From an uncultured archaeon (GTDB lineage Archaea; Aenigmatarchaeota; Aenigmatarchaeia; CG10238-14; SCSR01), in contig CAYNTH010000001.1 in assembly GCA_964400475.1 (NCBI GenBank), forward strand, positions 819-64,818: a stretch of 64,000 nt of DNA, given 5' to 3'. Within the stretch, counting starts at the first letter, position 1. Each line of letters begins with the position of its first letter. The notes under the pieces were generated by a model. That model saw nothing but the letters and a program-made list of their open reading frames with translations. It ran no database searches and was not told where the DNA came from. The position numbers were made by a program, and so were the translations under genes. Shown piece after piece: positions 3,381 through 55,349 of the stretch.

Positions 3381-3381
3381 T

Positions 3382-4074: not shown

Positions 4075-4563
4075 ATGCCATTCTTCAAAAAGGAAAAAAA
4101 CGACGGGAAAATAAACGAGATTATCCACAAGTTAGACGAATTGAATATGGTTATGAACGATGTTCAAGAGCGTGTGGATATGATCGAAGATGTTTTGGCA
4201 AAAAGACTGCCGCCTGACATATTGACCGAACGTAAATTTGTCGAAGAAGTCGAAACAGGTGATGAGATAGTTGAGAAACTCCTATCAGATATACAGGGTA
4301 TGGTCAAAAAGAATTCCGTGCGGAGTCTGATAGAAGACAGGATAGACGACAGATTCGATGCAAAACCTACCAGGGTAGAGACCAAACGAATAGAGAAAAT
4401 CACTAGGGTTTTACAGAACCATGATAGATTATCCAGTAATGATCTATCTGATTTAATCGGACTGTCTAGAACAAGGTGTAACGAGTATTTCAAACAGATG
4501 CAGGAATTGGGTATAGTGGAGCCTGTCAGGGAAGGGAGGAAGAAGTTCTACAGACTGAGTTAG
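4075..4563 (+). CDS. Coiled-coil N-terminus plus C-terminal winged-helix DNA-binding domain protein
   Basis: The C-terminus LSSNDLSDLIGLSRTRCNEYFKQMQELGIVEPVREGRKKFYRL looks like a wHTH. The N-terminal half is charged and helical. Confidence 0.6.
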   Translation: MPFFKKEKNDGKINEIIHKLDELNMVMNDVQERVDMIEDVLAKRLPPDILTERKFVEEVETGDEIVEKLLSDIQGMVKKNSVRSLIEDRIDDRFDAKPTRVETKRIEKITRVLQNHDRLSSNDLSDLIGLSRTRCNEYFKQMQELGIVEPVREGRKKFYRLS

Positions 4564-5915
4564 ATTCTCTCATATACGAAATATGTCGGGTTGCCATCGA
4601 ATGTCTCCTTTAACTGGTATTTTGAGAATAGTTCATCGAATTCAATTCTAGACGAATAATAATTGTCCATATCTATTATGAATTCGGGGGTGTCGGACTC
4701 TATATTGTTAATAACCTCGGTCGTATTCTCGAACAACATGTGCCTTAGATATGAATCCATGTAATTCCCGGAGACTCGTCTGCCTGTTGAGAACGACACA
4801 TAATTCACCATAATCGGTTCCCCGAATATGGTGTCGTTTTTCGAGGTATTTTCTTTGATAAGCTCCGATATCTTGTAGAAGTTTTCGGAATGAGACGGAT
4901 TCAGATAGAAATCGATTGTTTGTGTGTTGGATAGAATCATTAGTAATAATATTGTAGGTATGATAATTTTCACGATTTTTTCATCGGATTTTGAAAATGC
5001 ACGACCCGCCGCTATTGAATAGAACGGCACCGAAATGAGGAAATAGTGGTAAAATATGAGGTTAATCCCGAACAATATTGTCAAATCCACTATTATTGGC
5101 ACTATGGATAATAACATCAGTTTTTTATCTTTCTCAATATATCCGACCATGGCTGATATTGTGCTGAGAAATATTGTGAAGAATCCCATGTTCCAATATT
5201 GCATTTTTTGGGATTCTGGTGAACCCATGGATACTTTTGAGAATATGTGATATTCTATTGTCTGGTCCACAAAACCTTCTCCAAACAGCAACAACAATGC
5301 GGAACCGGTTAACAAAAACAAAATAACAGAAGCTGCCAAGAACTCTTTGATTTTCTGCTTGTTCTCATAGCACAGTGCGATGATCATCGGCAGGTACAAC
5401 ATTGACAAATATCTCGTAAATATTGAGAGAACGAATGGTATAGATGCTAGATATGCTGATTTCTTATTATCCTTTAACATCAGTAACAACGAAAGCAGTA
5501 CCAATGCCCCACATTCCCACATACCGTATCCCATTGCGGAGAATGCGAAAAATGAAGGCAATGTGAGGAACACAAACACGGATGGCATTCTTTCCCAATC
5601 CAACTCATCGGTTATCATATAGATTAGCAATATACAAGAGGATGATGCAATTAGGGGTATGATTTTCGCCACAAAGAAATTAGCCCCGAATATCTTGAAT
5701 ACTGATGCCAATAGGTAGATTTGGAATGGCGGATGTGCGAAGAAAAAATCAATGTAGGGCGTTCTGCCTTCAAGGACATTTTTCGCAACATTGAAATAGA
5801 ACGTTTCATCTGAAAAGGACGGATGGATGTAAAACGATCTGATTATTATAAAAGATAGTATGAAAATTACAATGAGGTGTTTTTCACCAATATCTAATTT
5901 GATATCCTTTCCCAT
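4560..5915 (-). CDS. Polytopic membrane glycosyltransferase, GT-C fold (PMT_2/ArnT-like)
   Basis: About 10 hydrophobic segments. The first loop SDETFYFNVAKNVLEGRTPYIDFFFAHPPFQIYLLA resembles the DE...hPPl signature of GT39/GT83-type enzymes. A soluble C-terminal domain of ~130 aa follows. Confidence 0.6.
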   Translation of the reverse strand: MGKDIKLDIGEKHLIVIFILSFIIIRSFYIHPSFSDETFYFNVAKNVLEGRTPYIDFFFAHPPFQIYLLASVFKIFGANFFVAKIIPLIASSSCILLIYMITDELDWERMPSVFVFLTLPSFFAFSAMGYGMWECGALVLLSLLLMLKDNKKSAYLASIPFVLSIFTRYLSMLYLPMIIALCYENKQKIKEFLAASVILFLLTGSALLLLFGEGFVDQTIEYHIFSKVSMGSPESQKMQYWNMGFFTIFLSTISAMVGYIEKDKKLMLLSIVPIIVDLTILFGINLIFYHYFLISVPFYSIAAGRAFSKSDEKIVKIIIPTILLLMILSNTQTIDFYLNPSHSENFYKISELIKENTSKNDTIFGEPIMVNYVSFSTGRRVSGNYMDSYLRHMLFENTTEVINNIESDTPEFIIDMDNYYSSRIEFDELFSKYQLKETFDGNPTYFVYERI

Positions 5916-5960: not shown

Positions 5961-6770
5961 GTGGATATATCCTATATAATAGAACAATTGAAGAGAATTT
6001 TGGAATACAAAGACACTATCAAAATATTGACTTTGAGTGATTTGAAGTTGAAATATGCGTCATCTACCCTGGGATTCCTTTGGTCCATACTTGAGCCATT
6101 ATTACTGATAGGGGTTTATTCACTGGTATTTCCGTTAATATTAAACGCCGATTTCTACGAGTGGGTTTTGTATTTTTTGGCAGGTTTCATACCATTCAGA
6201 TATTTTGAAAGAGGTATACGATCTGCTACAACTTCTTTGGTTGACAACAGGAATGTCCTTAATCGCGTTGACATACCATATATTATTATACCAATCTCTG
6301 TTGTGTTGTCAGATTCCATATCCTTCTTTTTGGAAAGTCTATTGTTTTTTGGGCTGATACTTCTTTCGGGGATATCGCCTACGCGTTATATGATATTTTT
6401 TCCACTTTTATTCTTGATGGAATTCTTCTTTATACTCGGTATAGGTATGTATCTCTCCATATCTTATGTGAAATTGAGGGATTTGAATTATATATTGAAT
6501 GTATTATTTCAGGCATTGTTTTTCTTAACACCGACAGTTTATAGGCTTGGTATGATCCCAATAAAATACAGAAGTATATACCTGAGCAATCCAATAGCCC
6601 GGTTAGTCTTATTGTATCAAGAGATAGCTCTTAGAAATCTTGCCTCTTTTTCGGAGACAATCCCGACAATTACAAATATTTCAATATTACTTATATTTTC
6701 CATATCAACTTTAATTGTCGGTTTTTGTCATTTTATTAGAAGGAATTTTAAAATAGGGGAGAAGTTATAG
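5961..6770 (+). CDS. ABC-2 type polysaccharide exporter permease (Wzm/TagG-like)
   Basis: LKLKYASSTLGFLWSILEPLLLIGVYSLVF is the N-terminal signature typical of ABC-2 permeases. About 6 TM segments. The ATPase gene follows immediately. Confidence 0.85.
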   Translation: MDISYIIEQLKRILEYKDTIKILTLSDLKLKYASSTLGFLWSILEPLLLIGVYSLVFPLILNADFYEWVLYFLAGFIPFRYFERGIRSATTSLVDNRNVLNRVDIPYIIIPISVVLSDSISFFLESLLFFGLILLSGISPTRYMIFFPLLFLMEFFFILGIGMYLSISYVKLRDLNYILNVLFQALFFLTPTVYRLGMIPIKYRSIYLSNPIARLVLLYQEIALRNLASFSETIPTITNISILLIFSISTLIVGFCHFIRRNFKIGEKL

Positions 6771-6772
6771 AA

Positions 6773-8170
6773 ATGATGGACAGTGTAATCGAATTAAAAA
6801 ATGTATCCAAGAGATTTGAGATAACGCACCAGAAAAGGGACACCGTAAAAGAAAATTTCATAGGATTCATAAAAGGAGACAATACACACACCGAATCTCT
6901 TTGGGCGCTGAAAGATATAAATCTCGATATAAAAAGTGGACAATGTGTGGGGATAGTTGGTGAAAATGGATCAGGTAAGACAACTTTATTGAAACTTATG
7001 GGCAGAATTCTCGAACCAACTACTGGAGAAATCTCGATCAATGGCAAGGTCGCGCCTCTGCTCAGTCTTGGTGTCGGATTCGAGTCTGATTTGACAGCCA
7101 AGGAAAATGTCTATTTATACGGTTCTATAATGGGATTAACAGAAAAACAGATAGATGAGAGATATGATGATATAGTCGAATTTTCTGAATTGGGGAGATT
7201 TATGGATGCTCAACTGAAAACATTTTCATCAGGTATGAAGATACGCCTTGGATTCGCAACAGCGATTAACATAGATTGTGATATTTTATTGGTTGATGAG
7301 GTGTTGTCTGTCGGTGATGGGGCGTTCCAAAAAAAGTGCTTGGAGGAATTTGATAAATTCAAGCGACGTGGGAAGACCATAGTGTATGTATCTCACGGCA
7401 TGGGCACGATCAAAAAGTACTGTGATAAGGTGTTGTTTCTGCACGAAGGTAAAGTTAGGATATTTGGCGATACACTGGATGTTATACCTCTCTACAAGAA
7501 ACACTTACTTAGTAAAGAACTAAGGGTCAATAATTCACACATATTGGATAGTATTAACAATCGTTACATGGATATAGGACTGCCTTATATCGAAGATTTG
7601 AAAATTTACAATCACGAAGAAGAAGAAGCATATGTTTTGGATTCTGGGAAAAAATGTCATATATTGGTTAAGGTCAGGAATGTCCCAGAGAATCAAATTT
7701 TGGTAGCTGATTTGTCAGGTCAAAACGACGGCGTTTATCTATTTTCTAAAAACTATGTCGGAGATTTCCTATGTTTCAAGGTGGATTCTCTGCCGTTGAC
7801 CTGTGGTGAATACAAGTTATCTATAAAGACAGTTGATGGAGATTTGTTAACCGGGTATGAAAAATTTGACATCTCGGTTAACATCGGACCCAATGCCAAA
7901 GGAATCAGAAGGATCTTTATAGAAAATCCGGTCACTTTAGACAAGGAGGTATTATCATTTGGCAAAGAATCTGAAAATGTTTTCAAAGATTTCAATGATG
8001 GGCACACATTGATATGTTTTGATGATTTGGATGTTGCGATTGAAGGTTGTGAAGAGGGCTCGTTGTTTTTTTACAAAGAGCTCTTATTGAATGGTTCTCC
8101 CGAGAAGATTATAGGAGAGTATAATAAGAGGGTATACAAATCTGCAATTTCAATTCTTGCAAGAGCCTAA
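6773..8170 (+). CDS. ABC polysaccharide exporter ATP-binding protein (Wzt/TagH-like) with a C-terminal ~220 aa extension
   Basis: Walker A GENGSGKTTLLK, the Wzt/TagH-typical INGKVAPLLSLGVGFESDLTAKENVYLYG, signature FSSGMKIRLGFA and Walker B ILLVDEV. The C-terminal beta-rich part (LPLTCGEYKLSIKTVDGDLL) resembles Wzt-C glycan-terminus-binding domains. Confidence 0.9.
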   Translation: MMDSVIELKNVSKRFEITHQKRDTVKENFIGFIKGDNTHTESLWALKDINLDIKSGQCVGIVGENGSGKTTLLKLMGRILEPTTGEISINGKVAPLLSLGVGFESDLTAKENVYLYGSIMGLTEKQIDERYDDIVEFSELGRFMDAQLKTFSSGMKIRLGFATAINIDCDILLVDEVLSVGDGAFQKKCLEEFDKFKRRGKTIVYVSHGMGTIKKYCDKVLFLHEGKVRIFGDTLDVIPLYKKHLLSKELRVNNSHILDSINNRYMDIGLPYIEDLKIYNHEEEEAYVLDSGKKCHILVKVRNVPENQILVADLSGQNDGVYLFSKNYVGDFLCFKVDSLPLTCGEYKLSIKTVDGDLLTGYEKFDISVNIGPNAKGIRRIFIENPVTLDKEVLSFGKESENVFKDFNDGHTLICFDDLDVAIEGCEEGSLFFYKELLLNGSPEKIIGEYNKRVYKSAISILARA

Positions 8171-8183: not shown

Positions 8184-9770
8184 ATGAACAATATAGATAA
8201 ATCAGCTGTCCATATGAAATTAAAAAAAATAGTTGATAGGATAATCCGGTTGGATTTGGCAAAGAATAATGATATTGCTATAATAGGGGATGGTAAAGAT
8301 CCGAACGCTTATCCAGGTCTCAAATATTTTACATATGACGACATACCGTTAATCAAAGAAAATAGTTTCAAATTTATCATATTGAGAGATCCCAGCAAGA
8401 TAAAAAATGGACAATTGAATGATATTTTCAAATTGAGTAGAAAATACGTGCTGTTAGAAGATCCATCATATATGGGCGCGCTCAAAAAAACCAACGATTT
8501 TGTAAAGGAGACACTTGACGGTGGCTTCGGTCAGATTTACGACCCGAAAAAACGTAATAGTGATGCGAATGTAATATCCGAAGAAATCGAAAAATCAGAT
8601 ATTGATAAAAATTTTACCATATTCAGCAAAGATGGTGATATATTCAGCAATTTGGAGAGTTTATCCGATAAAAACACTTCCGAAGATGATGATTTTCTGA
8701 TAAATTTCGCACTGATACAGAATTTGAAGAAGCAGATATCTGAAAAAGAGAAGGAAATCGTTTCCAAATCTAAGGACATCGAGATTTTGAAAAAGGGCAT
8801 GGAGTCGTCAAATGAGATTTCGAGGAATAAGATAAATAATTTAAAGATTATTTTGGAGCAACGGTCAAGAGAGAAAAAGATTCTTTCTAAAAGTTTCAGA
8901 GAAAAAGAAATTGAAATGGATAAGATGAGGGGAGACTTTCAAAGAACGATAGAGGAGAGGAGTAGGAAACTGGAACAAGACTATAAAAGAAAGGTAAAGG
9001 AGATAGAAGAGCAAAAATTGAAGTATCATGAAGACATCAACAGTGAATTGGATAGATTGGAAAGGATGTACACGCAGAAAAATGAGAGACTTAAGAAAAC
9101 GATTAAAAAATTGGAGACAAAACTACGCAAGGAAAAAAGAAGATTGATAGTGAATCATAGTAAGGAATTAGAGTCATATAAAGAGAGAATATCGGCTCTC
9201 AAGGATCAATATCAGAAGGAGATAACGGGTATATCTGATGCATATGAAAAACAAATTAGGAAGTTACATGAGAAAGAAAGCGAACTTAGAGAGAGTTTCA
9301 AAAAAGAAAAGAAATTGATATCTAAAAATTATGAGAATAAAATTAGCATTAAAGGGGAGCAAATCAAAAATCTCAAGAATGAGATAAATGAGAGATTATC
9401 TGATATTGGTTTACTCGAAGATAAGATATTGGAACTGAAAAAACAACATCAGTCGGAAATGATGAAAATATCTCAAAAAATAGAGAAAATAAACGAAGAA
9501 CACGAACGCGAAAAAGAAGAGATAATAATTAAGTTGGGTCGGGAGATTAAGAAGAGAGATGATGAATTGAATGAGGTAAAATCAAAATATAAACGAGATG
9601 TGCAGGAAAAAATTTCTAAAACTATCGATATTAAACAGCGTAAAGAGCGCGAAATTTCTAAATTGAAATCGGAATTGAATTCAATAAAATCATCTCCAAT
9701 TTATAGATTGTTATCGAAATTGGATTTTTTCAACGAAAAAGACGATGAGCCTGATATAGAGTGGGTATGA
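8184..9770 (+). CDS. Long coiled-coil protein with a small N-terminal globular domain (possibly a degenerate Rossmann/methyltransferase-like fold)
   Basis: The track ORF starts at TTG 8157, inside the wzt-like gene; ATG 8184 is more likely. Roughly 350 aa are K/E-rich heptad-like sequence. The N-terminus has DIAIIGDGKD...FKFIILRD...KYVLLEDP. The C-terminal tail is SSPIYRLLSKLDFF. Confidence 0.6.
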   Translation: MNNIDKSAVHMKLKKIVDRIIRLDLAKNNDIAIIGDGKDPNAYPGLKYFTYDDIPLIKENSFKFIILRDPSKIKNGQLNDIFKLSRKYVLLEDPSYMGALKKTNDFVKETLDGGFGQIYDPKKRNSDANVISEEIEKSDIDKNFTIFSKDGDIFSNLESLSDKNTSEDDDFLINFALIQNLKKQISEKEKEIVSKSKDIEILKKGMESSNEISRNKINNLKIILEQRSREKKILSKSFREKEIEMDKMRGDFQRTIEERSRKLEQDYKRKVKEIEEQKLKYHEDINSELDRLERMYTQKNERLKKTIKKLETKLRKEKRRLIVNHSKELESYKERISALKDQYQKEITGISDAYEKQIRKLHEKESELRESFKKEKKLISKNYENKISIKGEQIKNLKNEINERLSDIGLLEDKILELKKQHQSEMMKISQKIEKINEEHEREKEEIIIKLGREIKKRDDELNEVKSKYKRDVQEKISKTIDIKQRKEREISKLKSELNSIKSSPIYRLLSKLDFFNEKDDEPDIEWV

Positions 9771-10693
9771 TGAGTGAAAAAATATCTGTTGTGGTTTGTA
9801 CTATAAACAGGGCCAGTTTGACGGATTGCTTGAAATCTATTTATCAACAGGATTATAACGATATAGAAGTTATAGTGATTTCCCCAGACGAACGCGGTGT
9901 AAAAAAGATATTGAATGATTCATTGGATACGAAAAATCTAGAGTCAACTAAATTTGTACAGTCGCCCAAAGCAAATGTTTCTATACAGAGGAATTTGGGC
10001 ATAATGAATTCTTCGTCTGATATAGTTTGTTTTATAGACGATGATGCAGTTGCAGAAAAATCTTGGGTAACCAATCTGATTAAACATTATTCTGATAAGA
10101 AAGTAATGGCAGTTGGAGGTAAAATAAATCCTAAATTTAAGGGGTCCATACCAGACGAACTCAAAGAACTACCTGATAGTATTTTCAAGGGTTTTTTAGG
10201 TGAGACATTGTTTGAAACGGATGAGACAAAGCGGCTGGATATGCCTCTTCTGTGGGGGTCTAATATATCCTTTAGGAAAGAGATTTTTGACAGGATTGGA
10301 TTTTTCAACGAGGAATTGGGTAGGGCTGGAGACAAATTGTTGTGTGAGGAAGAAATAGATATACAATCCAAAATTCTAGATAAGGGTTATGATATAATCT
10401 ATGAACCATCATCTGTTGTTATTCATTATGTGGGTAAAAATAAACTTAATAGGAATTATTTTATTAAACGTGCATTTTGGCAGGGTTATTCTGAAGTAAT
10501 TAAAATTAAAGGATATTCTGATTTTAGGAAAAATATGGGGAATATCAGAATATCACATTTGCGATATGTGAATAACATAAAGTTTTTAGAATTGCTGTTT
10601 GAATTGGAAAGTTCGCCCAACCTTAAGAACAGTGTAGAAAAGTCATATAGGTTGGGCCGTATTGTGGGTTTGTCGTGCCTCGTTAATCGGTGA
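9767..10693 (+). CDS. Family 2 glycosyltransferase (GT-A fold)
   Basis: ISVVVCTINRASLTDCLKSIYQQDYNDIEVIVISPDE plus the DxD region VCFIDDDAVAE. ATG 9767 forms an ATGA overlap with the upstream stop; the track start is GTG 9761. Confidence 0.85.
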   Translation: MMSEKISVVVCTINRASLTDCLKSIYQQDYNDIEVIVISPDERGVKKILNDSLDTKNLESTKFVQSPKANVSIQRNLGIMNSSSDIVCFIDDDAVAEKSWVTNLIKHYSDKKVMAVGGKINPKFKGSIPDELKELPDSIFKGFLGETLFETDETKRLDMPLLWGSNISFRKEIFDRIGFFNEELGRAGDKLLCEEEIDIQSKILDKGYDIIYEPSSVVIHYVGKNKLNRNYFIKRAFWQGYSEVIKIKGYSDFRKNMGNIRISHLRYVNNIKFLELLFELESSPNLKNSVEKSYRLGRIVGLSCLVNR

Positions 10694-11736
10694 TTTTCTT
10701 GGAAGATATGAGAAAAGATAAAATGTTGTTATATCTGCTGTCGTATTATTCAAACATACCACTTGTTAAACCAGATTTCATAAATTTTGGTTTGACCCAC
10801 AGATGTAATTTGGGTTGCAATATTTGTGAAACATGGGAGGAACGACCCAACGTTGAAGATGAACTAATTCTAGATGATTTGAAGAAAACAATTTTTGATA
10901 TTTCAAAATGGGGTAGGATTAATATCTCTTTTGCGGGCGGGGAACCACTTATACGGAAAGATGATTTATTGCAATGCATAAAATATGCCAGTGGGTTGGG
11001 GTTGGATACACATGTTACAACGAATGGGATATTAATAAATGATAAAACAGCTGCTGAATTGGTGAAATCTGGGTTGGATTATTTGCAAGTATCGTTGGAT
11101 GGAATAAACGAAAAGACGAACGACAGTATTCGGAATGATGGATCTTATGCTGGAGCAATTCGTGCAATAGAAAAAATCAAAAAACACATCGAATTGGAGG
11201 AATCTGATATGAAGTTATCCATTACAACTGTAATTACAGATAAGAATATCGATGAATTATTGGGCATATACACGTTCGTCGAGGAAAATGATTTGCATGA
11301 AGTTTCGTTTAATCCGTATATAGCCGATAACTCCTATACAAAAGATAAAAATTATGAAGATGACGATTTCTGGGTGTCAGAAGAAAATATACCAAAATTA
11401 AGACGTGTATCTGATGAGTTGATAAAATTAAAAAAAGACAGGGGTAAAATAGGCACACCTCTTATAACATTGAAGCTGATGGGTGATTATTTTGAGAAGA
11501 AAACTTCATTTGATTCGGGTATATGCTTGGCAGGATATAGTTATATGTATGTTAAACCCAACGGCGAGGTCGATGTCTGCGGTAAAGGTCCATCAATGAA
11601 CGTCAGAGACAGCAATATAAGAAAGATATGGTATAGCCTAAAATTCGCGAAAACAAGATTAAAGATAACGCAGTGTAAAAAACCTTGTTTGATGTTATGT
11701 TTCCCCCGTGTAAGGTTTAAAGATTTTCTAAAATAG
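10690..11736 (+). CDS. Radical SAM enzyme, array paralog 1 (subfamily A tail)
   Basis: GLTHRCNLGCNICE (CX3CX2C), FAGGEPL, TTNGIL, SLDG..TNDSIRNDGSY. Tail: GICLAGYSYMYVKPNGEVDVCGKGP...CKKPCLMLCF. Confidence 0.9.
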   Translation: MIFLEDMRKDKMLLYLLSYYSNIPLVKPDFINFGLTHRCNLGCNICETWEERPNVEDELILDDLKKTIFDISKWGRINISFAGGEPLIRKDDLLQCIKYASGLGLDTHVTTNGILINDKTAAELVKSGLDYLQVSLDGINEKTNDSIRNDGSYAGAIRAIEKIKKHIELEESDMKLSITTVITDKNIDELLGIYTFVEENDLHEVSFNPYIADNSYTKDKNYEDDDFWVSEENIPKLRRVSDELIKLKKDRGKIGTPLITLKLMGDYFEKKTSFDSGICLAGYSYMYVKPNGEVDVCGKGPSMNVRDSNIRKIWYSLKFAKTRLKITQCKKPCLMLCFPRVRFKDFLK

Positions 11737-11759
11737 AATTTATTATCAATTAGATTGTT

Positions 11760-12857
11760 ATGTTAATCGATTATAAGCGGGAATTGGATTTAATTTTGGA
11801 TTATTTGCTTAGTGTGATTTCTTATAGAACAAATATCCCGTTAGTTAAGCCAACCAGAATTAATTTCGATATAACCAACAGATGTCCATTGAGATGTGTT
11901 ATGTGCAATATCTGCAGGCGAGATCACAGAGAAAATGACGAATTGGAGTTGTCTGAGTTGGAAAGTATAATAGACCAGGCAGTTGAATGGGGTATAGATA
12001 ATATCTCTTTTGCAGGCGGCGAAACCCTGGTGAGGAAAAATGATGTTTTGGAATTGATAGATTATTGTAGTTCGAAAAATATGACAACATCTCTGATCAC
12101 GAGCGGTACAATATTCGACAAAAAAACATTTGACAAAATTTTTGAATCTGGTTTGGACAAACTTACAATATCACTCGATGGTGCAACAGAGAAAACCCAC
12201 GATTATATCAGAGGAAAGGGTGCGTTTGAGAAGGCTATGCGAACTGCAAAATATTTCTCAAATAATAGAAACGGCAAGAAAAACCTTGAATTAGAGTTCG
12301 CAACATGTGTCATGTCTTATAATTATATGGAATTGCTAGACATTTATGAACTCATGAAAGAGGTTGGTTTTGATTTTGTAAATTATCAAGCTGTTGTTCC
12401 AGACAACAATTATTCGAATTTTAATAAGTCTGTGTATGATGTAGATTTTTGGTTAGATAGTGGCGAATCAAATAATCTGAGATCGATAGTTAACAAATTG
12501 ATAAAATTAAAGGAGGAAGAAGGTAAAATACGGAATAGCAAATACTATCTTAAAAAGATGCCTGATTACTTTATATTAAAAAACGAATTCAACCCCGGGA
12601 GATGTATGGCAGGATATAGGGTGATTAACATAGACCCGTATGGTAATATCAATATCTGCGGCCTTGGCCCTAATCTGAATGTGAGGGATGCGCCATTGAG
12701 GGAGTTATGGACACATGATGAATTCAAGAAGACCAGGATAAAGATAAAAGACTGCAAGGTTCCATGCATGATGTTGTGTTACGAAAAATTGGTTTTTATG
12801 GACCTATATAACAGTTGGATTGACAAAAGGATAGGTGAAGAATTACATGATGAATGA
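11760..12857 (+). CDS. Radical SAM enzyme, array paralog 2 (subfamily A tail)
   Basis: DITNRCPLRCVMCN, FAGGETL, SLDGATEKTHDYIRGKGAFEKA. Tail: GRCMAGYRVINIDPYGNINICGLGP...DCKVPCMMLCY. Confidence 0.9.
   Translation: MLIDYKRELDLILDYLLSVISYRTNIPLVKPTRINFDITNRCPLRCVMCNICRRDHRENDELELSELESIIDQAVEWGIDNISFAGGETLVRKNDVLELIDYCSSKNMTTSLITSGTIFDKKTFDKIFESGLDKLTISLDGATEKTHDYIRGKGAFEKAMRTAKYFSNNRNGKKNLELEFATCVMSYNYMELLDIYELMKEVGFDFVNYQAVVPDNNYSNFNKSVYDVDFWLDSGESNNLRSIVNKLIKLKEEEGKIRNSKYYLKKMPDYFILKNEFNPGRCMAGYRVINIDPYGNINICGLGPNLNVRDAPLRELWTHDEFKKTRIKIKDCKVPCMMLCYEKLVFMDLYNSWIDKRIGEELHDE
12657..12783. repeat. 127-bp perfect identity tract shared by paralogs 2 and 3 (partner 13750-13876)
   Basis: Base-by-base comparison by eye: tgcggccttggccctaatctgaat...gatgttgtgttacg is identical in both genes and lies in frame in both. 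Confidence 0.9.
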
Positions 12858-13920
12858 TATTCATAAAAAATTTGATTATGTTAAGAGATATCTCGGTTAT
12901 TTGTTATCACATGAATTTAATTATCCATTATCCCATCCTAAGGAATTAAATTTTCAGGTTACCAACAGGTGTCCGTTGAATTGTATAATGTGCAACATAT
13001 CTAAATTGTCCCCATCATCTAACGAGATGACATATGAAGAAATGAGAGATGTTATAGATCAGGTAGTTGATTGGGGAGTGGAATATATTTCTTTCGTTGG
13101 AGGAGAGGCCTTAGTTAGAAAAAATGATACTTTAAGATTGATAAAATATTCAAACGAGAGAGGATTTCATACAACTTTAATATCTTCTGGTTATTTTCTC
13201 GATAGGAAAGTTTGTAAAGAGTTGATAGACAACGGTTTAAACAGGTTAACGATATCACTCGATGGTGCAACAGAGAAAACCCACGATTATATCAGAGGAA
13301 AGGGTGCGTTTGAGAAGGCTATTAGCAGCATGGGGAAACTTGTCGAATTGAGAGGTAAAGTGTCAAATTGTGACTTGGCACTCGATTTTTCCACAGTCAT
13401 TATGTCTCATAATTTTAGGGAGTTAGTGGACATATATAGATTGGCTAAGAACATCGGAGTCGACCGTATATTCTATCAAGCCGTTGTTTTAGATAATACT
13501 TATGAATCTGGTCCGTCTGGATATAATGGATGTGATTTCTGGATAAACGAAGACGATATGAATGAATTTGAAAACGTTGTTGATAAATTAATAAAAATTA
13601 AAGAAAATGATAGCGATTTCTTGTTTAATTCACGCACATATTTGGAATTATTACCGGATTATTTCAGGCTGAAAAACGAATTCAACCCTGGGAGATGTTT
13701 GGCCGGATATATGAATTTGAATATAGACCCCTACGGCAACATCAGTGTGTGCGGCCTTGGCCCTAATCTGAATGTGAGGGATGCGCCATTGAGGGAGTTA
13801 TGGACACATGATGAATTCAAGAAGACCAGGATAAAGATAAAAGACTGCAAGGTTCCATGCATGATGTTGTGTTACGGTAAATTTGAACCCAAAGAGATGA
13901 TTAAGCATTTATTAGATTGA
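12835..13920 (+). CDS. Radical SAM enzyme, array paralog 3 (subfamily A tail)
   Basis: QVTNRCPLNCIMCN, FVGGEAL, SLDGATEKTHDYIRGKGAFEKA. Tail: GRCLAGYMNLNIDPYGNISVCGLGP...DCKVPCMMLCY. Overlaps paralog 2 by 23 nt. Confidence 0.9.
   Translation: MKNYMMNDIHKKFDYVKRYLGYLLSHEFNYPLSHPKELNFQVTNRCPLNCIMCNISKLSPSSNEMTYEEMRDVIDQVVDWGVEYISFVGGEALVRKNDTLRLIKYSNERGFHTTLISSGYFLDRKVCKELIDNGLNRLTISLDGATEKTHDYIRGKGAFEKAISSMGKLVELRGKVSNCDLALDFSTVIMSHNFRELVDIYRLAKNIGVDRIFYQAVVLDNTYESGPSGYNGCDFWINEDDMNEFENVVDKLIKIKENDSDFLFNSRTYLELLPDYFRLKNEFNPGRCLAGYMNLNIDPYGNISVCGLGPNLNVRDAPLRELWTHDEFKKTRIKIKDCKVPCMMLCYGKFEPKEMIKHLLD
13750..13876. repeat. 127-bp perfect identity tract (partner 12657-12783)
   Basis: See the partner entry. 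A second perfect 71-bp tract links 12168-12238 with 13252-13322, and the sequence between the two tracts is strongly diverged. Confidence 0.9.
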
Positions 13921-16049: not shown

Positions 16050-17215
16050 ATTTATATTTGTTCAATATGGATCTCGATACCATCCGATTAGAACGAAATA
16101 AGAGATTGTTGAAGTGGGAATCCGGTAAGACAGCCCCGCCACTGAGATTGATAGTTTTTCCTACCGCTAAATGTAATCTTCAATGCAGGATGTGTAAAAG
16201 AACACACAATTATCCAAATTCTTATACCGAAAATCTGGAATTAGGTGAAATGCCAATTGATAGATGGATAAAAATAACAAAAGAAGCCATAGAGATGGGT
16301 GTCAAAGATTGGTGGATACCTGGCTCGGGTGAACCTATGATGAGGTCAGATGCGGTGGTCAAAGTAGTGGAAGAGGTTAAATATCATTCAGATGATTCCA
16401 ATATAATGTTAACTACCAATGGCACACTTTTCACACCCCTGATAATAAGGAAATTTGTCAAACTAGGGGTTGATAGAATACAATTCAGCTTGGATTCAGC
16501 TGATCCTAAAATACATGATAGTATTAGAGGTGTTAAAGGTAGTTTCTATAGAACAATAAAAAATATCAGGCTTTTTAACTATTATAAAAAAATTTTTGAT
16601 ACTGACAAGCCCGACATGTATGTCAATTCTGTTATTACAAGAAAAAACTATACGAGTCTAGATAAATTAGCTGAGAAGTCTAAATTTTTAGGATGCAGTA
16701 GGATAAATTTGAATGAAATGATAGTCTATGACAAAGCAACCCCCAAAATAAAGGATTTAGTAATTTTAGATAAATCGAAAATAAAAGGCGAAATTGAAAA
16801 TTTGAAATCGTTTGGAAGCGCTGATAATTTTGATGTTTCAATAAGGATCGATACCGGGCCAGAAAAAAAAGAAATAACAAATGATAGATGTATTGGGAAA
16901 AGGAACAAAAATCAGATTATTGAGCGTAAATTCCTATCCCTCCCCTGTTTTGAGCCGTGGTACAGTATAAGTATAGACCCATACGGTTTCATTTCTCCGT
17001 GTTGCAATTGGGGAAAAGGTAAAGAAGAGTTTTCTATAGTGGGTAAGTCTCTATCAGAAGTATGGTATGGGGAATATATGGAATATTTCAGAGATATGAT
17101 CAGTGAGGGAAGATTAGAAGGACCTTGTAGAGGATGTAATATGAAATTTGTGTCAGATGAGATATCGAAAGAACTTAAGGATTATCAGACTTCAAATAAA
17201 AAAATAAGTATGTAG
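16046..17215 (+). CDS. Radical SAM enzyme with SPASM/Twitch-type tail, array paralog 6
   Basis: FPTAKCNLQCRMCK, IPGSGEPM, TTNGTL, SLDSADPKIHDSIRG. Tail: PCFEPWYSISIDPYGFISPCC...PCRGC. The start may be ATG 16067. Confidence 0.9.
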   Translation: MNLYLFNMDLDTIRLERNKRLLKWESGKTAPPLRLIVFPTAKCNLQCRMCKRTHNYPNSYTENLELGEMPIDRWIKITKEAIEMGVKDWWIPGSGEPMMRSDAVVKVVEEVKYHSDDSNIMLTTNGTLFTPLIIRKFVKLGVDRIQFSLDSADPKIHDSIRGVKGSFYRTIKNIRLFNYYKKIFDTDKPDMYVNSVITRKNYTSLDKLAEKSKFLGCSRINLNEMIVYDKATPKIKDLVILDKSKIKGEIENLKSFGSADNFDVSIRIDTGPEKKEITNDRCIGKRNKNQIIERKFLSLPCFEPWYSISIDPYGFISPCCNWGKGKEEFSIVGKSLSEVWYGEYMEYFRDMISEGRLEGPCRGCNMKFVSDEISKELKDYQTSNKKISM

Positions 17216-18825
17216 TGGGAACAATGGTAAAAGTAAAACTCATTTACGTCCCAAGATATTACAGTGGTGGGAAATTCGGATTCGGATATAGTAGATCACA
17301 CACCTTTACACCACCTTTAGGTATATCTATTTTAACATCATTGTTAAAAAAATTCGATATATATGTGAAACAAGACGATTTAGACGCGAGGATATTTTTT
17401 AATAATCCAGAAACGAGAGAAGATCTTAAAGTATTCGATGATAAAGCGCGTATAGAAGCCTTTTTAGACACAGCATATGATAGTGAGTTAGAGAGAAGAG
17501 CCGAAAAAATGCTTGAAAAAACAGAAATTAAAGGATACGATTTGATTGGTTTATCACTGTGTGGTCAGCATAATTTTTCTGTTATAGGAACGTGCGTGGT
17601 ATTGGCAAAATTGATTAAGGAAAAAACAGGCGCTAAAATTATAGTTGGTGGCGTTGATAAGAATGAATGCATGATAGAATTTTCTAAGTTAGTAGATTTT
17701 GATTATATAGATTTTGTTGTTTCTAGTAAAGGTGAAGAGGCTCTTTTGAATATTTGTCTCGAATTGGAAAATACTGGGGAAGTGGATCTTAAGATGGACA
17801 ATTTGTTTTATGTTGGTATGAAGGATGCTGATAAGAAACCAAAAATAAATATACAACCCTGGAACGATCTTTTAAAGCCAGATTTCGATGGGTTACCTCT
17901 TGATCTTTACCGATATAATCCGTATGAAGAATACGAGGATTTGAATCCATCTTTTGAAACGAATCTAAGAATTTTGATGCTGCCGTACGCGTTCACGTAT
18001 GGATGTCCAAACAATTGTGCATTTTGTTCTGAATATGAAAATAATTTTACTTACAAAAAAATACAGGATGTAATTGAAGACTTGAAATTTTTAAAAGAAA
18101 GGTACAACACGAAATATTTTTTCTTTTTAGTGAATAACATTAACCCATGGTATAATTATGCAGAGGAGCTTGCAGACGAGATAGTAAATCAAGATTTAGA
18201 TATAATGTGGACGGCTTGTGCCAATTTTAGCAATATGGATAAGAATCTACTTCATAAATTTAAGTTGTCTGGGGCTGTACGTTTGATTTATGGATTAGAA
18301 ACGGCCAGCAATAAGTTATTAAAATATGTTTTAAAGGGATTTACCCGTGAGAAGGCACGCAAAATGTTGGAGATTTCTGATAAATTTGGGATATGGAACG
18401 AGATAGAAATGATATCAGGATTACCGTTCGAACGAACCGATGATATAAAGACTAGTAAAGATTTTATCAGTCAAAATAAAGATTATATAAATTCATGCCA
18501 TCTCAATAAATTCATGCTCAAGAAGAGCTTATTCCTTAAATTTCCAGAAAGGTTTGGATTGACCAATACCAGTAGAATATCGCGCCCTTTCTATTTTTAT
18601 AGATTTGATGAAATAAACGGGTTAAAGTGGGCAGAAAAAGTTAAACAAATAGAAGATTCGTATAATGAATTACACACTGTAATAAATAACGAATTTCATT
18701 CAAAGGGATGGAAATATTATAGACCGAGTTCGAATTTCCCATTTTTGCTATATTTCTATGCAGTTATTGGAAATAAAGATGAAGTAGAATCGATTGTTTA
18801 TTCCAACACAGAATTTGGTGTGTGA
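17215..18825 (+). CDS. B12-binding-domain-type (class B-like) radical SAM enzyme
   Basis: N-terminal Rossmann-like region (PPLGISILTSLL..., IGLSLCGQHNFS...AKIIVGG) followed by AFTYGCPNNCAFCSEY (CX3CX2C). 536 aa. Confidence 0.8.
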   Translation: MGTMVKVKLIYVPRYYSGGKFGFGYSRSHTFTPPLGISILTSLLKKFDIYVKQDDLDARIFFNNPETREDLKVFDDKARIEAFLDTAYDSELERRAEKMLEKTEIKGYDLIGLSLCGQHNFSVIGTCVVLAKLIKEKTGAKIIVGGVDKNECMIEFSKLVDFDYIDFVVSSKGEEALLNICLELENTGEVDLKMDNLFYVGMKDADKKPKINIQPWNDLLKPDFDGLPLDLYRYNPYEEYEDLNPSFETNLRILMLPYAFTYGCPNNCAFCSEYENNFTYKKIQDVIEDLKFLKERYNTKYFFFLVNNINPWYNYAEELADEIVNQDLDIMWTACANFSNMDKNLLHKFKLSGAVRLIYGLETASNKLLKYVLKGFTREKARKMLEISDKFGIWNEIEMISGLPFERTDDIKTSKDFISQNKDYINSCHLNKFMLKKSLFLKFPERFGLTNTSRISRPFYFYRFDEINGLKWAEKVKQIEDSYNELHTVINNEFHSKGWKYYRPSSNFPFLLYFYAVIGNKDEVESIVYSNTEFGV

Positions 18826-19901
18826 TTATGACTGAAAAAACAGATAGATTGAAAAAATGGATGAATGGTGGGGAAGCCCCCCCAACAACAATGGAAATTA
18901 ACATAACCAACAGATGTAATTTGAAGTGTTTGTCGTGTTGGCAACGTAGCGGGAATATTAATTATGATGAACTGAGTTCCGAAAAATGGTTGGAGATTGT
19001 AAAAGATGCTGGTGAGATGGGCGTTGAAGAAATTAGAATTCCAGGAAGTGGCGAACCTCTTATAAGAAGCGACTTGGTTTTAGATATAATGGAAGAATCT
19101 AAAAAATATGGAATGAATGGTCTTATTATAACCAATGGGACGTTGTGGACGGATGAATTGGTCGAGAAGGCGATTAATGTCGGGTGGGACAATGTTACTT
19201 TCAGTATAGATGCACCTGATGCCGAGACCCACGACTATCTGAGGGGTATGGACGGTGCATTCGATAAAGCAATGAAATGGTTACGGAAGTTTAAGCATAT
19301 GAAGAGAAAAATGGATGAGACTCTTCCACTTCTGCGATTAAATGTAGTTTTGAGTAATGAGAATTTTGATAAGTTGGATAGAATGATGGAATTTGCCCAC
19401 ATAAATGGTTGCGATTCTCTTTCTCTTCAGCCAATGACGATATTTTCTCCTTTAGGTGAGAGATTAAAGCTAAACGATGAACAAATAAAGGAGTTGCCAG
19501 AGAATATTAAAAGAGCAAAAAGAATTGCAGATAAATATTCAATCTATACAAATGTAGATGATTTTGTTGATTCAGATATCGTTAAAAAAACCAATAAAAT
19601 GGATGAAGTGATAGCTGAAAAAATAGACGATTATAGTAATGAATTCCTATCCCTCCCCTGCTTCGAACCATGGTATAATATCATAATAATGCCTAACGGG
19701 ACAATGGGTCCTTGTAGTATGTTCGGGGGCGAAAAGGGCATAAGTCTGAAAAATAAATCTCTATCAGAAGTATGGTATGGGGAATATTTTACAAATATTC
19801 GGAAAAGATTACTAAATAAAAATCTCTTCGATTTTTGTAAAAATTGTTGTGTTGTTGTTTTTGAAGAAAATAAAAAAATCAGAGGAGAACTTTCAAAATA
19901 G
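18822..19901 (+). CDS. Radical SAM enzyme with SPASM/Twitch-type tail, array paralog 7
   Basis: NITNRCNLKCLSCW, IPGSGEPL, ITNGTL, SIDAPDAETHDYLRGMDGAFDKA. Tail: PCFEPWYNIIIMPNGTMGPC-x40-CKNCC. Confidence 0.9.
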   Translation: MIMTEKTDRLKKWMNGGEAPPTTMEINITNRCNLKCLSCWQRSGNINYDELSSEKWLEIVKDAGEMGVEEIRIPGSGEPLIRSDLVLDIMEESKKYGMNGLIITNGTLWTDELVEKAINVGWDNVTFSIDAPDAETHDYLRGMDGAFDKAMKWLRKFKHMKRKMDETLPLLRLNVVLSNENFDKLDRMMEFAHINGCDSLSLQPMTIFSPLGERLKLNDEQIKELPENIKRAKRIADKYSIYTNVDDFVDSDIVKKTNKMDEVIAEKIDDYSNEFLSLPCFEPWYNIIIMPNGTMGPCSMFGGEKGISLKNKSLSEVWYGEYFTNIRKRLLNKNLFDFCKNCCVVVFEENKKIRGELSK

Positions 19902-23462: not shown

Positions 23463-23484
23463 ATTTTAGGAGTTGATAAATAAT

Positions 23485-23829
23485 ATGGATGATAATATTA
23501 CAAAAGAAGTTTTAGAAGAATTTGAAAATAACTTTAAACAAGAGACCGAGGAGAATTCCATTAAAGATCCAATGATAGATGAAAATCCATTAACGCACAA
23601 TGAAAACGACGATCAAACAGAAGATTTAGGTAACAAATACAGGAAAGTTATTGAGGAAAATGAATTGTTAAAAATACAGCTTAAATCCAGGCAAAAAGAA
23701 ATTGATGATTTAAGAGCTGAATTAGACGATATTCACAATTCAATTAGTTATAGATTGGGTAGAAGATTTGCTGAAACTAGTTTGGGTGGAATTATTAAGA
23801 AGATTCTTCATAAGTATTTTTTTAGATAG
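23485..23829 (+). CDS. Small acidic coiled-coil protein with an NSISYRLG tail motif
   Basis: Acidic N-terminus, then the heptad-like ENELLKIQLKSRQKEIDDLRAELDDIH, then NSISYRLGRRFAETSLGGIIKKI. No Cys. The track start is TTG 23473. Confidence 0.55.
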   Translation: MDDNITKEVLEEFENNFKQETEENSIKDPMIDENPLTHNENDDQTEDLGNKYRKVIEENELLKIQLKSRQKEIDDLRAELDDIHNSISYRLGRRFAETSLGGIIKKILHKYFFR

Positions 23830-27294: not shown

Positions 27295-28881
27295 TTAATC
27301 ACTATTTATTTGGTAGAATTCTATCCCATGTTTTTCTTCTAATTTCTTAACATCAAAATTGTTCTCAATATTATCCCATTCTTCAATGGTAATCACGTTA
27401 CCTGTGTTTAATTTTTTTTCGGCTATACAATCCATTACATGTTTGTTAAGTATTACATAATCTAATTCTGGATAAATGTTAGTGCGGTTTTCATTGATTA
27501 TATATGTGTTTTCTCTATTTACAAACGCCAATGCCAATGTACCGTCTATACCAATGATCGAATTTTCAGGTATTTTTTCTTTTAAGTGAATGATATAATC
27601 CCATCTTTTATCATATTCTGTCGTATTTTTTTCATACTTTAGGAATGTCCCACCTTCTTTCATTATCTGCGAATTTGGTAGAGGGCAAAAATCAGAATAA
27701 TCTAGACCGTTTTCTTTTAGATGCATATTTGGATTGAGTGTATTCGTGTTGTGTAGGATTCTGGCGTAATTTAAAAAAAGCAAAAATATTATTAGGTATG
27801 TGATTATTTTTTGATTTCTAAATTTTGGAAATTTTTTCAATCTGCTGGACAATCTCTTAATAGCATATATGGAAGATACAAAGAATATTGGTATAAGTAT
27901 GGCATTGTTATTTGACCACAAATATATGTTCTTATCTCCAATGTATGCTAAATTTTCAACAATTTTTGGGATTGCGATTAGAAGTATGTCATATCCTATA
28001 ATTGGGAGAAACATGAAGATAGAGAAAATGTTTACCAAATAACTGGCGTTGTTCGTATTTTCCAAAAAAATATTTCTAATAGCAACTATTGGTAACATGA
28101 TTAGTTTGTATTTTGTTGCATCTTCTCCAAAATGTGTTCTAATTAAATCTTCGTAGTGATTGGGGAACACAGTATATCCTTTAAACATAACAAATGCATA
28201 CAGTAGAAGAATAACAATACCTCCGATTATTGGGTATATTGTCCATTTTTTGTTCTTTTCATTGTAGAAACAATAAATGCCGAAAAAAATTGCCAAAAGT
28301 GATATATTTTCTTTAGTGAGGAGAGAGAGTGTTAGAAATAAAATGAAATATCGGAAATTCTTTTTTTCGTAAAAATACCACATAAACAAGATAAATGGGA
28401 CTGCTTGGTATACCTCAAAATCTGGAGTTAATTTTAACTGCATTAATATTAATGGGTTTAATAAGAATCCCAGTCCCAAAAGAAACGCCAATTTTTTTGA
28501 GTTAAATTTAGTTTCGGCTATTTTGTAAATCGGTATTGATCCAATGGTCAACGTAATTCCGTGAAGAAAAAAATAAGTTCCCATTGTTGGATATATGCTA
28601 AAAATTATTGCACATAATATTGCCGTGAAGCTGAGATGTCCATATAAAATATTTGCCCCATACATTTCTGAAAAAGGTATAACCATCGTTATTTTTCTGG
28701 AAAAGTTAAAGAAGCTGTTCAATTCAAATCCAATATCTCTTGATCCAGATATAAATTTGTAATTCTTAAGCCAATATGATCGAGAGTATATACCGAAAAA
28801 CATTATTAATATTATTAAAATTGCCAAAAATTTATCAGAAGTTATCTGAGTTATGATTTTCGTAGCATTTTTTAATTTCAT
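27295..28881 (-). CDS. Polytopic membrane protein, DUF2079-like (putative GT-C-type), paralog of 45068-46624
   Basis: More than 10 hydrophobic segments. YGHLSFTAILCAIIFSIYP...LHGITLTIGSIPIYKIA and WYFYEKKNFRYFILFLTLSLLTKENISL are shared with the 45068 gene. It has a C-terminal soluble domain. The family call comes from pattern memory only. Confidence 0.5.
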   Translation of the reverse strand: MKLKNATKIITQITSDKFLAILIILIMFFGIYSRSYWLKNYKFISGSRDIGFELNSFFNFSRKITMVIPFSEMYGANILYGHLSFTAILCAIIFSIYPTMGTYFFLHGITLTIGSIPIYKIAETKFNSKKLAFLLGLGFLLNPLILMQLKLTPDFEVYQAVPFILFMWYFYEKKNFRYFILFLTLSLLTKENISLLAIFFGIYCFYNEKNKKWTIYPIIGGIVILLLYAFVMFKGYTVFPNHYEDLIRTHFGEDATKYKLIMLPIVAIRNIFLENTNNASYLVNIFSIFMFLPIIGYDILLIAIPKIVENLAYIGDKNIYLWSNNNAILIPIFFVSSIYAIKRLSSRLKKFPKFRNQKIITYLIIFLLFLNYARILHNTNTLNPNMHLKENGLDYSDFCPLPNSQIMKEGGTFLKYEKNTTEYDKRWDYIIHLKEKIPENSIIGIDGTLALAFVNRENTYIINENRTNIYPELDYVILNKHVMDCIAEKKLNTGNVITIEEWDNIENNFDVKKLEEKHGIEFYQINSD

Positions 28882-31181: not shown

Positions 31182-31249
31182 TATTTTGATTATATTAAGG
31201 AATATCGTAGAGAACCTTGTTAGTATTTTTTGATAATGGTGTTTGTATA

Positions 31250-32338
31250 ATGAAATATAGAGAATTGGGAAAAACTGGAATGAAAGTATCTGTAATTGGG
31301 TTGGGTGGTGGAGTTTTTAATGTGAATAAAGATCCAACATTAACTGTGAAAGAAGCAAGAAATGTCGTCTCTCATGCTGTTGAAAATGGAATTAATATAA
31401 TAGATACTAGTAAGGAGTATGATGAAGAATTCCTATCTAATGTCATTGATGATTTGGAAGACGAGCTCAAAATAATTACGAAATCTGAAGCTAGGTCCAG
31501 AAAAAAAATGAAAAATGATATGAAAGATAGCTTTGATAAAATGGGAAAAGATTTTGTAGATATATATCAACTTCACATGGTCAATTCAATAAAGGATTTG
31601 AATAATAGAATTGATGCAGGAGTTTTGGATGTTCTTAAGGATGCCAAACGAGATGGAACAATTGGACATATCGGAATATTCAGCCACAAAATAGATGTTC
31701 TTAAAGAAGCGATAAAGACCGACGAATTCGATGTTGTTACAACTCTTTACAATGCGGCTCATACAAAATCAGATGAACTGAATAGTCTTGGCGAAAGTTT
31801 CGATGTAGGCCTTATTGCTGCTGCACCACTTGCTAATGGAATATTGGTTTTACCGAAATATGGTAGAAAATCTGATGTTAAAGGTGACGTCAGTCAGATG
31901 AATGTTGAATCTGCACTGAAGTTCGTTTTATCGAATAAAAATTTTTCTACAGCTCTTGTAGGATCTAGAAACATGCCCCACATCAAGGAAAATGTCAAAA
32001 TGGGTGACATAAATTTTGATATATCACAGGGCGAGAGAGCTGAAATAGAAAGAAAGGTTTTGGAGTTTTTAGGTGAAGATTTTTGCAGAGGTTGTCGATA
32101 TTGTGAACCATGTGATGTTCACGGTGATAAACTCCCGATAAGCGACATACTCAAATTGAAAATCCTTTATGAAAGGTATGGATTAAAAAACTTTGCAAAG
32201 AATCAATATTTAATGAAAAAGAAAGTACATGGCATCCCTGAGTGTACAAAATGCATGAAGTGTGAAATTAAGTGCCCTTATAATGTTCCGATTGTAGATG
32301 AATTGGATGATGCTATCAGATTATTTGAAAATGGGTGA
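31250..32338 (+). CDS. Aldo/keto reductase fused to a C-terminal Fe-S (ferredoxin-like) domain
   Basis: MKYRELGKTGMKVSVIGLGG is a typical AKR N-terminus. The C-terminus has CRGCRYCEPC plus CTKCMKCEIKCP. The track start TTG 31217 is probably too far upstream. Confidence 0.85.
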   Translation: MKYRELGKTGMKVSVIGLGGGVFNVNKDPTLTVKEARNVVSHAVENGINIIDTSKEYDEEFLSNVIDDLEDELKIITKSEARSRKKMKNDMKDSFDKMGKDFVDIYQLHMVNSIKDLNNRIDAGVLDVLKDAKRDGTIGHIGIFSHKIDVLKEAIKTDEFDVVTTLYNAAHTKSDELNSLGESFDVGLIAAAPLANGILVLPKYGRKSDVKGDVSQMNVESALKFVLSNKNFSTALVGSRNMPHIKENVKMGDINFDISQGERAEIERKVLEFLGEDFCRGCRYCEPCDVHGDKLPISDILKLKILYERYGLKNFAKNQYLMKKKVHGIPECTKCMKCEIKCPYNVPIVDELDDAIRLFENG

Positions 32339-54158: not shown

Positions 54159-54214
54159 ATCTTTGAAATAAAACAAATGTGTAATGATTTAAAGGTCAAA
54201 ATGTTGTGGAAATT

Positions 54215-55342: not shown

Positions 55343-55349
55343 CGGTGGT

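Follow-up and report, generated by a model that had tools for sequence, protein, structure and literature searches.

What do 27 diverged radical S-adenosylmethionine (SAM) enzymes, encoded together in one locus of a DPANN-type archaeon, act upon? We analysed a stretch of 64,000 nucleotides, hereafter the window, from an uncultured member of the Aenigmatarchaeota (assembly GCA_964400475.1, contig CAYNTH010000001.1), with the gene at 18822–19901, one copy of this array, as the target. [quoted passage not shown] We find support for a one-cluster, BtrN-like Twitch domain in the target, and the 27 copies lie in a locus for the assembly and export of a surface glycan, where their substrate is probably a sugar polymer rather than a peptide.

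Evidence for a one-cluster Twitch domain

The longest reading of the target gene starts at GTG 18822 and gives 359 amino acids (aa); the true start is probably ATG 18828, giving 357 aa, because the database protein P0001 has that length. The product belongs to the radical SAM superfamily. Residues 32–39 of the translation, with codon positions checked, read CNLKCLSC, a CX3CX2C motif; the Pfam family Radical_SAM (PF04055) matches above its cut-off with an E value of 3.8e-22, and the predicted structure has the alternating beta/alpha core. In the tail, residues 279–298 read PCFEPWYNIIIMPNGTMGPC, that is C280-x12-G293-x4-C298, and C298 is followed by 40 residues and then C339-K-N-C342-C343. This is exactly the series of PC-x12-G-x4-C, some 40 residues and CxxC(C) that had been described for a representative copy.

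Two related domains have to be told apart here. SPASM domains carry a seven-cysteine motif, CX9-15GX4C-gap-CX2CX5CX3C-gap-C, and bind two auxiliary clusters, whereas the Twitch domain is a shortened SPASM domain with one cluster, built of a beta-hairpin followed by a helix with cysteines before and after the hairpin (PMC6231123, PMC9012708). In BtrN the cluster is fully ligated by four cysteines, one before the hairpin, one after it and two after the helix, and the post-hairpin and post-helix arrangement is as in SkfB (PMC6231123, PMC9012708). Pfam labels the target tail SPASM (E 1.4e-8, residues 280–342, profile positions 1–66 of 67), a match that reflects the first half-motif, which is common to SPASM and Twitch.

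Exactly 27 open reading frames (ORFs) in the window encode proteins of 344–467 aa with an N-terminal CX3CX2C motif whose first cysteine lies at residue 30–47. In a MAFFT alignment of these proteins the cysteine columns occupied in most copies are the three of the radical SAM motif, those of C280, C298 and C339 (27/27 each) and that of C342 (24/27). The four- or five-cysteine pattern claimed for most copies thus extends to all: every tail has at least four cysteines, with CxxC in 24 copies and Cx3Cx3C in the remaining 3. Spacing is equally constant, with C-x17-C in 27/27 and the next cysteine after 35–43 residues. The first half of the seven-cysteine motif is present (C-x12-G-x4-C in the target), the second half is replaced by CxxC or Cx3Cx3C, and neither the CX2CX5CX3C block nor the distal cysteine occurs in any of the 27. 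Only 6 of about 95 tail columns are invariant (C, G, C, W, R, C) at a mean identity of 38%, and because three of these six are cysteines the pattern is not a chance one. In the alignment of the 27 tails no His, Asp or Glu is conserved that might serve as ligand to a second cluster, extra tail cysteines are specific to single paralogs or orthogroups, and the domain ends some 15–25 residues past CxxC. Among 100 homologs from public data the four tail cysteines are present in 100, 100, 100 and 99, respectively.

The CC doublet formed by C342 and C343 had been noted as an occasional feature. It occurs in 9/27 paralogs, as that remark implied, but it is not sporadic, since C343 is kept in 57/58 members of the target's own orthologous group, defined as 58 sequences at no less than 44% identity. 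C197 (codon 19410–19412) is kept in 50/58 of the same group. C197 and C343 are conserved in this group only, and either is a candidate residue for hydrogen donation in catalysis or for alternative ligation of a cluster. The first three paralogs of the array (10690, 11760 and 12835; span 10690–13920, plus strand) make up a subgroup in which C-x3-C-x3-C replaces CxxC and Pfam SPASM matches are weak or absent, and their orthologs hold the identical first three positions in the related loci L001 and L003.

When a profile built from the 27 tails was run against the sequences of the whole PDB, BtrN came first (4m7s, E 4.2e-10), about five orders of magnitude ahead of SuiB (1.5e-5), with SkfB at 0.06. 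The alignment with BtrN covers the entire Twitch domain, and all four cysteines pair with BtrN cysteines. In a single-sequence search BtrN was the sole PDB entry aligning to the tail (E 9e-4, tail only), and the full-length family profile matches it in two stretches (E 5e-17), of which the Twitch domain is the best. An AlphaFold2 model of the target built on 100 homologs (predicted local distance difference test score 95.4, predicted template modelling score 0.92) places strands 286–289 and 294–296 between C280 and C298, followed by helix 321–331 and then C339/C342. The tail therefore combines a cysteine-flanked hairpin and a following helix with four conserved cysteines and no other conserved residue of ligand type, enough for just one auxiliary cluster. 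A Foldseek search of the model against the PDB did not separate the subclasses, all matches having template modelling (TM) scores of about 0.6–0.67, and a search of a large protein database with the tail profile returned fragments only. Since cysteine-column conservation, the PDB tail-profile search and the predicted topology are three independent tests and agree, a one-cluster, BtrN-like Twitch domain is supported for the target, as the initial annotation had suggested, with the number of clusters predicted from sequence and model.

No recognition element or cysteine-rich precursor found

RiPP maturases of the SkfB, SuiB and CteB type depend on a RiPP recognition element (RRE). The initial annotation had counted about 20–35 residues ahead of the CX3CX2C motif and judged them too few. 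We find 29–46 in the 27 paralogs and 24–50 in the homologs, and the AlphaFold2 model has a single helix (residues 2–14) ahead of strand 1. A winged-helix RRE of some 80–100 residues was thus found neither at the N-terminus of the 27 paralogs and their homologs nor in the model; there is no room for one because the N-terminal stretch is too short. RREs can exist as separate proteins, and no member of the PqqD/RRE family was matched in any ORF scanned. The short N-terminal helix carries a motif of its own, R-L-x-x-W-x-x-G-x-x-x-x-P, common to about 22 of the 27 paralogs (for example at 18822–18914), in which R9, W13 and P21 are invariant or nearly so among the 100 homologs. It may mark the family or serve in docking.

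The absence of short cysteine-rich precursor ORFs between the genes was likewise borne out, with none in the few gaps of the array, and no conserved cysteine-rich ORF was present in nine related loci. The homologous loci did reveal one small ORF of another kind. It lies at 23473–23829, encodes a cysteine-free coiled-coil protein of 118 aa ending in the motif IHxSISYRxGRxxAET..G..K..L.KY (also found as IHxSISYRxGRWIAET), and sits in the identical slot between the identical two paralogs in L001, L003/L004 and L007. It is missing from L002 and L006, which retain the enzyme family. A word-index search with this ORF returned only itself, and an exhaustive search of 1.8 billion representatives found seven relatives, all of 72–135 aa and none fused to an enzyme. 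Evenly conserved over some 60 residues, it looks more like a structural protein than a precursor, and its product might act as scaffold or membrane tether or be a substrate.

The initial annotation had taken both the reduced cluster motif and the missing RRE as arguments against classical RiPP maturases. The second holds. The first does not hold by itself, since RiPPs are compatible with a Twitch domain, as the sactisynthase SkfB, itself a Twitch enzyme, shows (PMC6231123).

An old array among glycan genes

The paralogs are 21–55% identical to one another (median 32%), and many have a syntenic ortholog in L001 at 50–64%, above their best paralog in the same genome. Because orthologs are more alike than paralogs within the genome, the array is old and its copies are individually kept and specialised, which points to distinct roles. 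Most array genes overlap by 1–23 bp or lie less than 40 bp apart, and overlaps of 4–8 bp suggest co-transcription. The array is interrupted by two B12-radical SAM genes, two fusions of an aldo-keto reductase (AKR) to ferredoxin, two DUF2079 genes, a GDSL esterase gene and two small ORFs.

The components of an ABC-transporter-dependent glycopolymer pathway are all present in the window, namely an ABC-2 permease, a Wzt/TagH-like ATPase, a family 2 glycosyltransferase (GT2) and two family 4 enzymes (GT4s). The permease matches ABC2_membrane and galactan Wzm at E 5e-10, and the GT2 that heads the array is AglG-like, by family match of the type that acts on a dolichyl-phosphate-linked sugar. The ATPase (6773–8170, plus strand) has 465 aa, some 220 residues of them in a C-terminal extension beyond the nucleotide-binding domain; by analogy with O-antigen Wzt this extension may be a glycan-cap-binding module.

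The same company is kept elsewhere. The best-matching named homologs are from Aenigmarchaeota, where loci repeat the synteny of the window: AKR–ferredoxin, ABC-2 and ABC ATPase, GT2, then the array. A single-protein query of GTDB genomes returned one short Aenigmatarchaeota contig only. In seven further loci, from archaea as well as bacteria, relatives are likewise embedded among glycan genes, and the more distant ones occur singly or in pairs. They are found beside GT2, GT4, GT9 and carbamoyltransferase genes in a Thermodesulfobacteriota locus; beside DegT, Wzx, epimerase, UDP-glucose dehydrogenase, NTP-transferase and PMT_2 genes in an archaeal locus; with GT4, PMT_2 and a sulfatase-type transferase in another; and with ABC-2 and a phosphodiesterase-type transferase on a bacterial contig. 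In every locus with enough context, the genes that recur beside the family are glycan genes.

Because the window and these seven loci all place the family among glycan genes, we favour a glycan substrate. This context had not been used in the initial annotation, whose preference for a substrate other than a leader-bearing RiPP it supports. On balance we consider it rather probable that the paralogs use radical chemistry at the cytoplasmic face to tailor a lipid-linked glycopolymer of the cell surface, or its sugar precursors, ahead of export, with both substrate and chemistry deduced from homology and context.

Alternative substrates and domain assignments

Several findings weigh against a glycan substrate. 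No member of the family has a known substrate or product, and all NCBIfam matches lie far below curated cut-offs. Three cytoplasmic glycosyltransferases against 32 radical SAM genes is an odd ratio for a plain glycan pathway. The remaining points lead to the opposite proposal, that the paralogs are protein or peptide maturases without a fused RRE, installing thioether or C–C cross-links in a secreted protein or epimerising its residues. In PDB searches the closest relatives of the catalytic core are the peptide-modifying enzymes SkfB (the Twitch sactisynthase), SuiB, PqqE and CteB, and it is general knowledge that anSME modifies a protein without an RRE. Two cysteine-rich secreted proteins flank the array in the window, the protein of more than 1145 aa at 3–3437 (minus strand) and the 168-aa protein at 52404–52910 (minus strand), and both would be candidate substrates, as would the 118-aa coiled-coil product, since this small ORF inside the array keeps its slot in four other loci. 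A cysteine-rich protein as conserved partner was nevertheless rejected, the 168-aa protein being absent, like any conserved cysteine-rich ORF, from the related loci examined, and the 118-aa protein is cysteine-free, is conserved along its entire coiled coil like a structural protein and is lacking in two loci that have the enzymes. No PqqD/RRE protein was found among the scanned ORFs, and the constant neighbours are glycan genes. The auxiliary cluster also appears to be fully ligated by cysteine as in BtrN, whereas that of CteB has an open site (PMC6231123). We therefore regard a maturase role as unlikely. Sulfatase maturation in the manner of anSME was considered separately and rejected, because the window holds no sulfatase gene and a two-cluster SPASM domain is not what the tail is.

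An isoprenoid lipid as substrate, whether an archaeal membrane lipid obtained by scavenging or the dolichol carrier, modified in the manner of Tes, Gms and other lipid radical SAM enzymes, seems to us distinctly unlikely. It draws on the three Tes/HMPTM-like radical SAM genes at 58599–62712, on the resemblance of the B12-radical SAM enzymes to HpnJ and to B12-radical SAM families of lipid biosynthesis, and on the SPASM domains borne by several lipid-modifying radical SAM enzymes (PMC13459092). Yet Tes and Gms have full two-cluster SPASM domains (PMC13459092), which the 27 paralogs lack; the Tes-type structure 7tol matches the family profile weakly and in the core only (E 1.3e-7); and the archaeal and bacterial relatives lie in nucleotide-sugar, glycosyltransferase and exporter loci, not in lipid loci. 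As for the domain itself, the tail might be an ordinary two-cluster SPASM domain whose second cluster is held by ligands that are not cysteines or do not align. The nearly full-length Pfam SPASM match, the Asp ligand used by PqqE (PMC6231123) and the one or two extra cysteines beside the conserved ones in many paralogs could be read in this way. Against it stand the set of invariant tail columns with a near-invariant fourth cysteine, the lack of any conserved His, Asp, Glu or distal cysteine, the early end of the domain after CxxC and the restriction of the extra cysteines to individual paralogs or orthogroups, so that we hold a second cluster to be very improbable.

A proposed route of glycan tailoring

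For the favoured glycan substrate, a mechanism can be proposed. The target would work in the cytoplasm as a Twitch-subclass radical SAM enzyme without a peptide-recognition domain, whose [4Fe-4S] cluster on C32, C36 and C39 would cleave SAM and whose single auxiliary cluster would be fully ligated by C280, C298, C339 and C342 in the BtrN arrangement. The 27 paralogs would be co-transcribed with the AglG-like GT2, the GT4s, the B12-radical SAM enzymes, the AKR–ferredoxin fusions and the Wzm/Wzt exporter. By analogy with BtrN (PMC9012708), the 5'-deoxyadenosyl radical would take a hydrogen from a sugar C–H bond, and the auxiliary cluster would then accept an electron to give a keto sugar, a BtrN-like dehydrogenation. 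In some paralogs the radical might be quenched from the opposite face, resulting in epimerisation like that of HygY and NeoN. The AKR–ferredoxin proteins, possible keto-sugar reductases or electron partners of the radical SAM enzymes, could reduce the keto intermediates, or shuttle or recycle electrons. A Wzm/Wzt pathway would fit cytoplasmic tailoring of a lipid-linked polymer ahead of its export.

More tentatively, and as a possibility we hold to be less likely than not, the locus may encode a radical tailoring line: some 27 specialised BtrN-like enzymes, together with the B12-radical SAM enzymes and the AKR–ferredoxin partners, each of which modifies a defined position of a lipid-linked surface glycopolymer before it is exported by Wzm/Wzt. 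Such a line could have its scaffold in the conserved coiled-coil ORF. If this were true, an anaerobic DPANN archaeon with few sugar-nucleotide pathways would diversify its surface sugars by oxidation, epimerisation, deoxygenation, methylation or cross-linking. To our knowledge such a polysaccharide pathway has not been described, and we know of sugar-acting Twitch radical SAM enzymes only as single enzymes of antibiotic pathways (BtrN, HygY and BlsE). Our search of the literature on radical SAM enzymes in Aenigmarchaeota or DPANN, on Twitch domains and on polysaccharides found no description of such arrays.

The family is thus an uncharacterised subfamily, tied to envelope glycan genes in archaea and bacteria and expanded to 27 conserved copies in one operon-like Aenigmarchaeota locus. 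If its substrate is indeed a glycan, radical chemistry would count as a major route, so far unrecognised, by which uncultivated anaerobes diversify their surface glycans, and such arrays would be a rich source of enzymes that functionalise carbohydrate C–H bonds. There is a practical warning as well, in that the Pfam label SPASM does not imply a RiPP cluster.

Features of the window

The coordinates of the features are collected in Table 1. Besides PMT_2, Wzm/Wzt and GT2, the region upstream of the array encodes a 537-aa protein without assignment, and a putative GT-C glycosyltransferase of 688 aa lies in or past the array. The gene for the 168-aa cysteine-rich protein follows the last paralog and precedes the GT4 genes. 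Of the Tes/HMPTM-like copies, it is the second (59924–61309) in which a zinc-ribbon domain was detected. The first 4 kb of the window have a raised GC content (41.5%) and an inverted GC skew. An rRNA or tRNA gene was rejected as the source of the odd base composition of positions 1–4000, Rfam and ARAGORN having found nothing; it is explained by the surface protein gene at 3–3437 (minus strand), of which the listed ORF 1958–2626 (plus strand) is an opposite-strand shadow.

Table 1 Features of the window and of related loci, with coordinates, strand and basis or remarks
Feature	Coordinates	Strand	Basis or remarks
Cys/Asp/Ser/Gly-rich surface protein, >1145 aa, runs off the window start	3–3437	-	N-terminal membrane anchor, no Pfam match
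PMT_2 (GT-C type) membrane glycosyltransferase	4560–5915	-	
Wzm-like ABC-2 permease and Wzt/TagH-like ATPase	5961–8170	+	TagH E 7e-65 and galactan Wzt E 2e-54, both below equivalog cut-offs
AglG-like GT2 heading the array	9761–10693	+	4 bp overlap with the first paralog
Array of 27 diverged Twitch radical SAM paralogs	10690–52407	both	Motif, length, alignment
B12-binding radical SAM directly upstream of the target	17215–18825	+	4 bp overlap with the target
Target radical SAM gene with C-terminal Twitch-type domain	18822–19901	+	Pfam matches, AlphaFold2 model
CX3CX2C (C32, C36, C39), motif of the SAM-binding [4Fe-4S] cluster	18915–18938	+	Invariant in 27/27 paralogs
Twitch-type auxiliary-cluster domain, residues 277–346	19650–19859	+	Cys conservation, BtrN alignment
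Twitch Cys codons	C280 19659–61; C298 19713–15; C339 19836–38; C342 19845–47; C343 19848–50	+	
Cys-free small ORF, 118 aa, coiled coil and amphipathic C-terminal motif	23473–23829	+	Conserved slot in four other loci
Relatives of the small ORF	L001 18624–18827; L003 18863–19099; L007 756–1163		Slot between orthologous radical SAM genes
DUF2079 membrane protein, two copies	27295–28881; 45068–46624	-; +	Related to proteins that form cell-surface glycopolymers
Two fusions of an aldo-keto reductase to a 2x[4Fe-4S] ferredoxin domain	31217–32338; 32343–33965	+	Pair kept beside arrays in L001 and L003
Second B12-binding radical SAM, HpnJ/BchE-like	43598–45010	+	
DUF5989 membrane peptide, 57 aa	46637–46810	-	E 9e-13; between DUF2079 gene and GDSL esterase gene
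Signal-anchored protein, 168 aa, 10 Cys in a repeating pattern	52404–52910	-	No family match
Two GT4 glycosyltransferases and a GH113/GH5-like hydrolase	52962–56363	+	
Three tandem Tes/HMPTM-like radical SAMs, 12–16 Cys each	58599–62712	+	Family distinct from the 27 Twitch paralogs

Comparison with known systems

The SPASM enzymes anSME, PqqE, SuiB and CteB share with the target the superfamily branch, the CX9-15GX4C half-motif and the hairpin; unlike the 27 paralogs they carry the seven-cysteine motif and two auxiliary clusters (PMC6231123). Among PDB entries the sactisynthase SkfB (6EFN) matches the target's catalytic core best, in sequence as in fold, and it too has a Twitch domain with four conserved tail cysteines (PMC6231123). 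It differs in its N-terminal RRE of about 100 residues, in a CXC motif where the target has CxxC, and in its leader-bearing peptide substrate. NCBIfam NF033640 (N_Twi_rSAM), a family with an N-terminal twitch, matches the target in both modules with their order swapped, its twitch segment falling on residues 280–343 and its core elsewhere, at 61–85 bits against a cut-off of 170 bits.

BlsE, a cytosylglucuronate decarboxylase (PDB 7VOB), is a radical SAM enzyme that modifies a sugar nucleoside. Its fold overlaps well (TM score 0.72 when normalised to the target), and its core matches the family profile at an E value of 7e-22. The similarity is confined to the core, the tail being unaligned, and BlsE is a single enzyme of an antibiotic pathway. 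HygY and NeoN are radical SAM sugar epimerases of aminoglycoside pathways that act on sugar C–H bonds, and they serve as a model, by description and not by sequence, for how some paralogs might epimerise rather than oxidise. HygY is termed a twitch enzyme in the title of a paper cited in PMC10991966.

The nearest counterpart of the target's tail is BtrN, the 2-deoxy-scyllo-inosamine dehydrogenase of the butirosin pathway (PDB 4M7T/4M7S). Both combine a radical SAM core with a Twitch domain in which the cysteines follow the same order of hairpin, helix and CxxC, and BtrN likewise has a short N-terminus without an RRE and acts on a carbohydrate-type substrate (PMC9012708, PMC6231123). The two are not orthologs: clear similarity is limited to the Twitch domain, BtrN is shorter by about 100 residues, and neither full-length similarity nor a butirosin or 2-deoxystreptamine context was found, the window holding no aminoglycoside pathway genes. 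BtrN serves as a single enzyme of an aminoglycoside pathway, whereas the target belongs to a 27-copy array in a glycopolymer export locus.

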